From a virus (Duplodnaviria > Heunggongvirae > Uroviricota > Caudoviricetes): a DNA stretch of 4,917 nucleotides. The DNA lies in the IMG/VR virus record IMGVR_UViG_2671180814_000001, one strand, 5' to 3'. The position numbers and the translations under genes are program-made. The notes beneath the pieces were generated by a model, which was not told the origin of the DNA, ran no database searches, and was given only the letters and a program-made list of their open reading frames with translations. Below are positions 2,579 to 4,917 of this stretch, piece by piece (the stretch's first letter is position 1; each line of letters starts with the position of its first letter).

Positions 2579-2836
2579 CTACTTCGCTTTTGCTTCCGCT
2601 CGCTTACGCCGGCGCTCTTCTTTCCTCTCGGCTTTTGCCATGTCCATGAATGCCTGCATGATCGAGTTCCGCATCATGTAGCTAACAAAGTGATGATTGA
2701 CACAGCCGTTGAGGCGCAGCTGCTCGCCAAACTCATCCACCGAGGCCAATGCTTCCATCATGCCCTTCTCGCCTTTCATGAACTCTGAGAAGTCGCGCCC
2801 CGCTCTGGAGGCGCATTCAATAACATGATCACTCAT
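2579..2836 (-). CDS. Hypothetical 85-aa protein with an acidic N-terminal half and a strongly basic/charged C-terminal tail; downstream partner of the KilA-N-like gene
   Basis: ATG at 2834-2836 overlaps the stop of the upstream ORF (ATGA). C-terminal tail AKAERKEERRRKRAEAKAK. A hairpin (AAGCCCA/TGGGCTT, 2549-2570) lies 9 nt past the stop. I do not recognise the family. Confidence 0.5.
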   Translation of the reverse strand: MSDHVIECASRAGRDFSEFMKGEKGMMEALASVDEFGEQLRLNGCVNHHFVSYMMRNSIMQAFMDMAKAERKEERRRKRAEAKAK

Positions 2837-3330
2837 CCCGGAAGCCCGGGGATCGTAATCTGCAGCTGGTTAGCCAGGGAGTTAATCTCAGCGACCAACA
2901 CTGGCTTCGTATAGCGCCATGCTGCCAGCCCTTGTCCGCAGAAGCTCGCCATGTCTTTCTTCTGGTCAAATTCATGACATTTCATGTTGAGCTGCGCACT
3001 TAAGCTGTTGCGATGCTGAAGTTCTCCGGTGAAGTAGTCATCGAGGACTTTATAGGCCGCGTACTTGAACCCGGGGTTTAACCAAGCCGCATAATCGTAA
3101 GCAACAAACTTCCCGCCATATGTTCCACCGTGTACACCGCGCTCAGTAAAAACCACAGATTCGTGGTTTTTCTCCAGCTCGGCTAAGAACTCTTTGGTCT
3201 GCTTGTTTCGCAGGTAGTGGTAAGGCGATTCAGATTCACTTTTACCACTGGCTTTCCACATATCAGTGAGGCAGATCATGCCATCTTCACCGATACGAAT
3301 TGGTTGATTGAAGAGGGTTAATGATTTCAT
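2833..3330 (-). CDS. KilA-N-domain-like protein (165 aa), function unknown
   Basis: The N-terminal ~110 aa fit the KilA-N pattern as I recall it: LFNQPIRIGEDGMICLTDMWKASGK ... EFLAEL ... GGTYGGKFVAYDYAAWLNPGFKYAAYKVL. The C-terminal ~55 aa are unassigned. ATG at 3328-3330; a weak GAG/AGG SD lies upstream. Preceded by the tandem terminators that follow the complete lysis cassette. Confidence 0.6.
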   Translation of the reverse strand: MKSLTLFNQPIRIGEDGMICLTDMWKASGKSESESPYHYLRNKQTKEFLAELEKNHESVVFTERGVHGGTYGGKFVAYDYAAWLNPGFKYAAYKVLDDYFTGELQHRNSLSAQLNMKCHEFDQKKDMASFCGQGLAAWRYTKPVLVAEINSLANQLQITIPGLPG

Positions 3331-3531: not shown

Positions 3532-3990
3532 TTATTTCAGGCATTGCGTCCTGATGTATTCCTGCAGGTAGTTAACCTGCGCGGTTATCTTGTCGATTCC
3601 ACTTCGGAGACGGTAATAATTGAGTTCAGCATCTGCTGTAAGTCCTGGGCTTTCTCCATCGCCCATGCCGCTGGCTCCGGTCGTTGACTTTGCACAGGTG
3701 GCGGCGACTTGCAGGCGCTTACGCCCAGCAGAAACATCAGCACGGAGACTTTCGATAGTCGCGTTAGCATCAGCAAGCTCCTTTATGTATCTTGCGTCGA
3801 GTTCTGCTACATCACGTTGACGCTTCCGCATGTCAGCGATGGTGGCGTTCGCCTTCTCCAGTTCACTGGCCTTGTTATCGCGCTGCTCTTTGTAGGCGAT
3901 TGCGTTATCACGGTAATGATTAACAGCCAATGACAGGCAGACGATGATGCAGATAACCAGAGCGGAGATAATCGCGGTTACTCTGCTCAT
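3532..3990 (-). CDS. Rz: Rz i-spanin (second variant; C-terminal half diverged from the copy at 1699-2166)
   Basis: [35 protein letters not shown]-terminal TM helix followed by a charged coiled-coil-like region. GGGGGA SD before ATG 3988-3990. The ATG overlaps the endolysin stop (ATGA). Rz1 is embedded. Confidence 0.85.
3585..3770 (-). CDS. Rz1: Rz1 o-spanin lipoprotein, embedded in the +1 frame of Rz (second variant)
   Basis: From ATG 3768-3770: [20 protein letters not shown] (signal peptide with lipobox Cys) followed by the proline-rich [16 protein letters not shown]. Entirely inside Rz. Confidence 0.75.
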
Positions 3991-4484
3991 TGTTTCCCCC
4001 ACAAACAGACTTCACGCTCAATCTCACGGCGAGTCATCAGTCCTTTCCATTGATTACCGCCAGCGTATGTCCAGCGCCGTAGCTGATCACATGCGCCTTT
4101 AATATCACCCTGGTTTATTTTGCGAAGAAGCGTCGATGTTCTGAAATTGCCAGCGCCCACGTTGTAAACGAACGAGTAAAGAGCGCCGCGCGTTGTTTCC
4201 GGTATATCGACTTTGATGTACGGGTTAATTTGTCTGGCGACAGTGGCAAGGTCTTTATTCAGGAGAGCTTTGCACTCTGCTTCGGTATACGTTTTACCGG
4301 GAATGATGTCTTTTCCTGTATGCCCGTAACATACAGTCCATACACCAACTATGTCTTTGTAAGGATTATGTCTCACACCTTCCAGACCATCGTTACCACC
4401 TGGGCCAGTGATTAACACAGATGCTATAGCAATAGCCCCGCCACCAATAGCAGCAGCAACAGCTTTTCGTAATGATGGAGGCAT
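3987..4484 (-). CDS. R: SAR endolysin (phage-21 R / DLP12 RrrD-type lysozyme with an N-terminal signal-anchor-release domain)
   Basis: 165 aa. [28 protein letters not shown] is a Gly/Ala-rich weakly hydrophobic SAR segment. It is followed by a T4-lysozyme-like catalytic region (LEGV...YKD...VWT). Near-identical to the phage 21 R protein as recalled. The start overlaps the holin stop (TAATG). Confidence 0.9.
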
Positions 4485-4699: not shown

Positions 4700-4811
4700 A
4701 ACCCCACCTCGCAGACAAAGCGGGTGTAAATTGAGGGAATACTACGAAACGTAACAGACTCGGAGTCAGTGAATAACTCAGGTATTGGGTTATCAGCTAA
4801 TATCGAGACTC

Positions 4812-4844
4812 AAAAAATGGAAAAACCCGCTCGACGGCGGGTTT
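4812..4844 (-). terminator. Candidate tR' (terminator of the short late-promoter transcript, the target of Q antitermination)
   Basis: Minus-strand RNA AAACCCGC-CGUCGA-GCGGGUUU followed by UUCCAUUUUUU: a perfect 8-bp stem with a U-rich tail, about 110 nt upstream of the holin start. Confidence 0.55.
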
Positions 4845-4874
4845 AAGCTGTGTGACGAAGTAACCACTCTTAAC

Positions 4875-4903
4875 AGCATAACCAATTTTGGTGATGCTGC
4901 CAA
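4875..4903 (-). promoter_or_regulatory. Candidate sigma70 late promoter (pR'-like)
   Basis: On the minus strand: TTGGCA (-35, 4898-4903), a 17-nt spacer, and TATGCT (-10, 4875-4880). The predicted start is about 55 nt upstream of the terminator T-run. The Q gene would lie beyond the right edge of the window. Confidence 0.35.
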
Positions 4904-4917
4904 CTTACTGATTTAGT

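Follow-up and report, generated by a model that had tools for sequence, protein, structure and literature searches.

A probable Q-dependent late control region split by IS1 upstream of the holin gene in a DLP12-like lambdoid prophage

Results

Features at the right end of the window

The stretch of DNA analysed, referred to here as the window, comprises 4,917 nucleotides from the Caudoviricetes record IMGVR_UViG_2671180814_000001 of IMG/VR. Its right end, read on the minus strand, holds the hexamers TTGGCA and TATGCT with a 17-nt spacer between them, followed by an 8-bp hairpin with a T-rich tract, a leader and a holin gene, all of which were found where a preliminary description of this DNA had placed them (Table 1). 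The holin is 100% identical to the EssD-type holins of related loci and is the first gene of a lysis cassette that continues with a SAR endolysin and Rz/Rz1. The reading frames for the holin, endolysin and spanin are all intact in the window.

Table 1. Positions of promoter, terminator, leader, holin, IS1 and palindrome features, in window numbering unless a locus is named
Feature	Position	Strand	Basis or remark
-35-like hexamer TTGGCA	4903-4898	minus	Promoter scan; within the inverted repeat of IS1, 9-14 nt from the tip of the element
Native pR' -10 hexamer TATGCT	4875..4880	minus	Aligned column for column with TATCAT, annotated as the pR' -10 in 933W and Ss-VASD
Conserved block TAAGAGTGGTTACTTCGTCAC, with putative start A4868	4852..4872	minus	Most conserved stretch of the alignment
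Hairpin with 8-bp stem: AAACCCGC (4844-4837), 6-nt loop CGTCGA, GCGGGTTT (4830-4823)	4823..4844	minus	
T-rich tract TTCCATTTTTT: TT, CCA, TTTTTT after the stem	4812..4822	minus	
Leader from terminator to holin ATG (4699), ~113 nt	4700..4811	minus	Conserved with DLP12, 434 and PA-2
S21-type class II holin, 71 aa	4484..4699	minus	Pfam PF04971, E = 2e-35
Terminal 28 bp of IS1, IRL end (plus strand reads GGTGATGCTGCCAACTTACTGATTTAGT)	4890..4917	minus	Same sequence as the end of IS1 in L013 and L008
8-bp IS1 target-site duplication AAAATTGG (minus-strand reading)	4882..4889		Promoter-proximal copy
Palindrome, DLP12	L002 4484-4499		
Palindrome, 933W	L016 702-717		
Palindrome, L018-L137	50 nt upstream of block		

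As bare patterns, the promoter and terminator features are no commoner than chance. Seven promoter-like sites were counted in the window against 5.1 +/- 2.2 in shuffled sequences, and seven terminator-like sites against 4.3 +/- 2.0. The fold of the 61-nt leader did not differ significantly from that of shuffles (z = -1.38), and structure alone is therefore no proof. The features were accepted as real because the window from 4889 downward is homologous to the annotated pR'/terminator region of the 933W type.

Further features were seen elsewhere in the window. A run of 184 N (2282-2465) marks a scaffold gap, and positions 1937-2275 and 3761-4099 are diverged copies of one another (87% over 339 nt), such that the 3' end of the endolysin gene and the start of Rz/Rz1 occur a second time. 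A duplication, or the joining of two prophage lysis regions, could account for this. Between the spanin and packaging genes, the minus strand encodes a KilA-N/ORF11CD3 domain protein of 165 aa (2833-3330), a very widespread protein for which 16,610 collection blocks were indexed.

Homology to annotated late promoters

In the uninterrupted sequence of DLP12, 434 and PA-2, this region reads TTTACG, 16 nt, TATGCT, GT and TAAGAGTGGTTACTTCGTCACACAGCTT, with the hairpin following. Window positions 4889-4821 align with the pR' -10, start site and terminator of 933W, the record of which annotates pR' at 20666-20693 (TTTACG-16-TATCAT), a putative qut site and, as a terminator, the homologous hairpin at 20726-20748. 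When the window, DLP12, PA-2, 933W and Ss-VASD were aligned, the native -35, the 16-nt spacer, the -10, the conserved block and the hairpin stood in register, and the TAnnnT form of the -10 was retained in all variants of the module. The module in the window also aligns with the DNA upstream of essD in DLP12; in 933W, H-19B, Ss-VASD and one further locus (L005), it lies directly after Q. A pattern scan for the conserved block gave 135 loci, among which the invariance of the block is by construction, as the block formed part of the search pattern.

The start of transcription was placed by comparison with the Stx phages of the Sakai strain, in which the length from pR' to tR' is 258 nt as mapped by dRNA-seq and Term-seq (PMC7547250). 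In Sakai Sp5 (L141), counting back exactly 258 nt from the end of the second terminator leads to the fifth base of the block, an A. Because this A sits at the mapped pR'-to-tR' distance, we infer that transcription starts at its homologue in the window, A4868. Other promoter registers, with TAAGAG or AAAAAT as the -10, were rejected, as they have no fitting -35 and the mapped Stx-phage start favours TATGCT/TATCAT.

The block opens with TAAGAG, which is like the TAAGCT of the phage 21 SDPE, but its position, from -4 to +17, includes the start site. Candidates for a pause element downstream of the start differ, being TACATT in 933W and TACTTC in the DLP12 type. An inverted repeat, GTGG-N8-(T/C)CAC, is also present on the minus strand at window positions 4852-4867 (+2 to +17) and would form a 4-bp hairpin in the predicted RNA; its conservation is partly imposed by the search pattern.

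An IS1 insertion in the promoter spacer

Relatives of the holin region match the window only as far as position 4889 (139 phage and 3134 E. coli records). Two longer relatives, L013 and L008, continue past the window into a complete 768-bp IS1 that encodes InsA and InsB' (Pfam PF03811, PF12759 and PF03400), and the other end of this IS1 is flanked by the same 8-mer, AAAATTGG, that abuts it in the window. The window itself stops inside IS1, and its end is probably explained by an assembly break within the IS1 repeat. When IS1 and one copy of AAAATTGG were deleted in silico, the DLP12 sequence was restored without gaps (99.1% over 1092 nt).

The point of insertion lies in the promoter spacer, 9 bp upstream of the native -10. 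In L013 and L008, the native -35, TTTACG, and the palindrome adjoining it are displaced 776 bp further upstream, outside the window. Because positions 4890-4917 are an IS1 end and the DNA from 4889 downward is phage, the two promoter hexamers come from different elements. The insA gene is directed away from the holin; TTGGCA is therefore the outward -35 box of IS1.

The exact IS1/phage junction was found in five other contigs, L013 and L008 among them; four are from IMG/VR and one, CP049175.1, is an NCBI genome reached via the KilA-N protein. None of 5,426 complete E. coli genomes had an IS1 insertion at this site, and the exact junction 35-mer and 31-mer had no match in the genome-contig and metagenome-contig collections. 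The prophage region is IS1-rich, with a second, truncated copy ~4.7 kb further upstream in L013 (10920-11181). A match to the Rfam Trp_leader family (RF00513) at 4817-4908 was set aside as spurious, since it scored 28.8 bits against a gathering threshold of 41 and spans the IS1 junction, which makes it a composite.

Position of the Q gene

The preliminary description had placed a Q gene just beyond the right edge of the window and had proposed rightward extension as a check. Extension through L013 and L008 did recover a PF06530 (Q21-family) Q gene on the same strand, but it is not adjacent: IS1, the remaining native promoter half and a divergent lc/nmpC-type porin gene come first, and the end of Q lies 2449 nt from the block, a figure made up of the ~1673-nt distance of the DLP12 type and the 776-bp insertion. 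In both contigs, Q is intact, and its 127 aa show 100% identity with QuuD. The protein is distantly related to Q21, for which structures are available (PDB 6P18 and 6JNX; E = 7.6e-7).

A PF06530 Q gene was found upstream on the same strand in 110 of the 135 block loci, at most 120 nt from the block in 26 of the 110 and 0.6-2.5 kb away in the other 84. Loci with large gaps include L002, L004, L006, L007, L010 and L011, and gene content was viewed in some of them. In the DLP12, PA-2 and 434 type, it is the divergent lc/nmpC porin gene that separates Q from the promoter. Other contents were an unannotated reverse-strand reading frame of 339 aa (L007) and a reverse-strand lipocalin gene with a forward-strand gene (L011). 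The late promoter of DLP12/PA-2/434-type prophages thus adjoins the holin, with a foreign porin gene inserted between Q and the promoter. The DLP12 lysis operon is reported to be controlled by a Q-type antiterminator (PMC7918800, citing Rueggeberg 2013).

The terminator

Among 63 unique variants of the region downstream of the block, 57 contained a hairpin with a T tract, as did 25 of 1260 shuffled sequences (2%). At least five unrelated stem sequences occupy similar positions among the relatives. That the hairpin and T tract are kept although the stems are unrelated argues for selection on termination and not on any particular sequence. In the window, the hairpin alone has a dG of -11.6 kcal/mol, and it is the first and only terminator between pR' and the holin, as in the DLP12-type module. 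The 3' ends of the predicted transcript would be expected at the T tract, which would give an RNA of ~48-57 nt.

Without Q, pR' transcripts of the Sakai Stx phages end mainly at +258, at a second terminator (PMC7547250), which means that at least some polymerase passes the homologous first hairpin in these phages. The first hairpin of the Stx phages (L016 762-784; +27 to +49) is well formed, with a dG of -12.1 kcal/mol and seven U, and the second terminator lies at L016 965-993. Only nucleotides 1-47 of StxS_L, the 258-nt form of the StxS small RNA, match the window, and both StxS_S, the functional 74-nt RNA processed from its 3' part, and the second terminator are absent from the window. With the match limited in this way, the element in the window is not an StxS gene.

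A clade-specific palindrome over the native -35

A palindrome of 8-10 bp lies across the native -35 and the first part of the spacer, and its form tracks the clade of the linked Q. In the QuuD/Q933W clade, it reads TTTACG(T/A)(A/T)CGTAAA, and in other Q clades GCGGTCCGC, GCGTACGC, TGTTATAACA and TGGAATTCCA; the list of forms also includes TTCGTTACGAA. Within each Q clade the palindrome is constant, forming a conserved island amid variable flanks, and this pattern makes it a candidate Q-binding element. [quoted passage not shown] No definition of a Q933W or QuuD binding site was found in the literature searched.

Discussion

Identity and comparison with known systems

In identity and structure, the region is probably the downstream half of a Q-dependent late control module from a lambdoid prophage like DLP12, PA-2 and 434, split by IS1. 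It is an element of a known kind in a new, damaged configuration. The late control region proposed in the preliminary description accordingly survives in its -10, start region and hairpin, all of which are homologous to 933W, H-19B, Ss-VASD and DLP12, but not in its -35, which belongs to IS1.

From 4889 downward, DLP12 (of K-12), 434 and PA-2 are 98-100% identical to the window, and they share with its lineage the lysis cassette and the order Q, divergent porin gene, pR' and S. These three keep an intact native promoter, whereas the lineage of the window has IS1 in the spacer. The pR' of 933W, H-19B and Sp5 is ~77-79% alike over the spacer, -10, start site, block and first hairpin; these phages have a Q of the same family as the window lineage (PF06530, QuuD/Q933W) and share TTTACG, the 16-nt spacer and the palindrome TTTACG(A/T)(T/A)CGTAAA with the uninterrupted DLP12 form. 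In the Stx phages, the module lies right next to Q, and the second terminator (+258), tRNA genes and stx come after it, whereas in the window ~113 nt precede the holin, there is a single hairpin and the -35 half is that of IS1.

Comparison with the late region of phage 21, which the preliminary description had also suggested, revealed a parallel layout without DNA homology. Both have a promoter, a start-proximal element opening with TAAG, a terminator that would give an RNA of ~50 nt and an S21-type holin, but the best short match between the two had E = 0.2, and the Q family of phage 21 is distantly related to the Q of the window lineage. The QBE of phage 21 consists of two direct 8-bp repeats that fill the spacer between -35 and -10 (-27 to -12 in the annotated record), and the equivalent spacer region is the part that IS1 interrupts in the window. 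The window family has a palindrome over the -35, unlike the direct repeats of phage 21, in which, moreover, the module abuts Q. Lambda shares the regulatory logic of the module, in that pR', 6S RNA and tR' form a constitutive late promoter with a short terminated transcript and Q-dependent read-through (PMC8065619); its Q family is unrelated, its sequence is dissimilar and its leader measures 194 nt against ~50 nt in the window.

The IS1 fusion promoters of acrEF, blaTEM and afaA likewise combine an outward -35 with a resident -10 at a distance of ~17 bp. IS1 fusion (hybrid) promoters were reportedly described by Prentki et al. in 1986. In the window, IS1 has exchanged one -35 for another and taken away the regulatory DNA upstream, rather than switching on a silent gene, since the -10 was part of a functional promoter beforehand; a terminator also comes directly after it.

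Proposed working of the hybrid promoter

The hybrid TTGGCA-17-TATGCT agrees with the consensus at 9 of 12 positions, and the native promoter at 8 of 12 with a 16-nt spacer. From this agreement, of a kind that occurs at chance frequency in the window, the IS1/phage hybrid is plausibly a usable sigma-70 promoter. The inverted repeat of IS1 carries an outward -35 box able to form hybrid promoters (PMC8764528; PMC9330008 Table 1), and a genuine IS1 end, a target-site duplication and a -10 within the 16-18 bp expected of such promoters (here 17 bp) were found. By placing its -35 box 17 bp from the native -10, IS1 would have created a hybrid promoter, from which RNA starting at A4868 would mostly end at the hairpin and T tract (4844-4812) as a product of ~50 nt. 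To reach the holin, endolysin and spanin genes, RNA polymerase would normally need the QuuD-type Q encoded ~2.4 kb upstream. IS1 replaces all promoter DNA upstream of -21, and with the upstream promoter half gone, Q probably loads onto the hybrid less well or not at all; the lysis cassette would then remain behind the terminator. InsA bound at the IS1 end could occlude the -35.

The role of the palindrome is put forward more tentatively. The QBE of the QuuD/Q933W branch may be the palindrome over the -35, and IS1 may have cut this QBE from the -10; taken together, these linked readings are possible, if on the doubtful side.

Alternative explanations

It could be argued that the region is an intact phage pR'/tR' pair, with TTGGCA as a phage -35 and Q immediately to the right of the window, as the -10, the hairpin and their position upstream of the holin all suit a late control region. 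This reading now has next to no likelihood: TTGGCA and half of the spacer are IS1, the relatives all diverge at 4889, the native -35 is TTTACG and Q lies ~2.4 kb off, past IS1 and the porin gene. On both the -35 and the position of Q, it is refuted by the contigs that extend the window, L008 and L013. Very improbable too is the proposal that the block serves the divergent porin gene lc/nmpC as a CRP operator, which would make the region porin regulatory DNA. The PA-2 record (J02580.1) annotates a CRP site over AGTGGTTACTTCGTCACACAG (L003 1730-1750; window 4848-4868), and the region does fall within the space between the porin and holin genes, but the block and hairpin directly follow Q, with no porin gene there, in 933W, H-19B, Ss-VASD and L005. 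The half-sites (GTGG-N8-TCAC) are spaced by 8 rather than the 6 of CRP, and the site is ~400 nt from the porin start codon.

IS1 may instead have killed the late promoter, leaving TTGGCA-17-TATGCT as a fortuitous and silent match, the hairpin idle and the lysis cassette a dead remnant. Promoter-like matches of similar quality do occur at chance frequency, the prophage carries further IS elements and rearrangements, the candidate Q-binding palindrome and native -35 have been parted from the -10, and silence has a proposed cause in, for example, occlusion by InsA or IHF at the IS1 end. This outcome is nonetheless considered rather unlikely, as the outward -35 of IS1 is documented in active hybrids with a suitably spaced -10 (PMC8764528; PMC9330008), and the spacing here is the optimal 17 bp, the -10 partner is proven, the consensus match exceeds that of the native promoter and the holin, endolysin and spanin reading frames are intact. 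The hairpin might, on the other hand, be a leader-RNA structure with a role in pausing, stability or Q loading that is mostly read through, with the lysis genes expressed constitutively at a low level. Such a role would agree with the homologous pR' transcripts of the Sakai Stx phages, which reach +258 without Q (PMC7547250), and with the expression of the DLP12 lysis genes, with phenotypes, in uninduced K-12 (PMC7918800). Against it stand the persistence of the hairpin and T tract where the stem has been swapped for unrelated sequence and the annotation of the hairpin as a terminator in 933W, and a 50-nt product is probably under-sampled by RNA-seq; reading the hairpin as something other than a terminator is therefore regarded as distinctly unlikely.

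Implications

The main worth of the analysis lies in a correction. What appeared to be a tidy promoter/terminator pair is half phage and half insertion sequence, and its antiterminator gene lies off the lambda-style map. Should the palindrome be the QBE, the lineage would carry a Q-blind, IS1-driven promoter that yields only a terminated leader of ~50 nt, and its lysis cassette would be naturally uncoupled from the antiterminator. If the hybrid promoter is active but Q-blind, the lineage would serve as a natural experiment on which half of the promoter determines Q specificity. The location of this specificity matters because Stx phages drive the Shiga toxin genes from the same promoter family, and its practical consequence would be whether the cryptic lysis cassette of this lineage can still be switched on.
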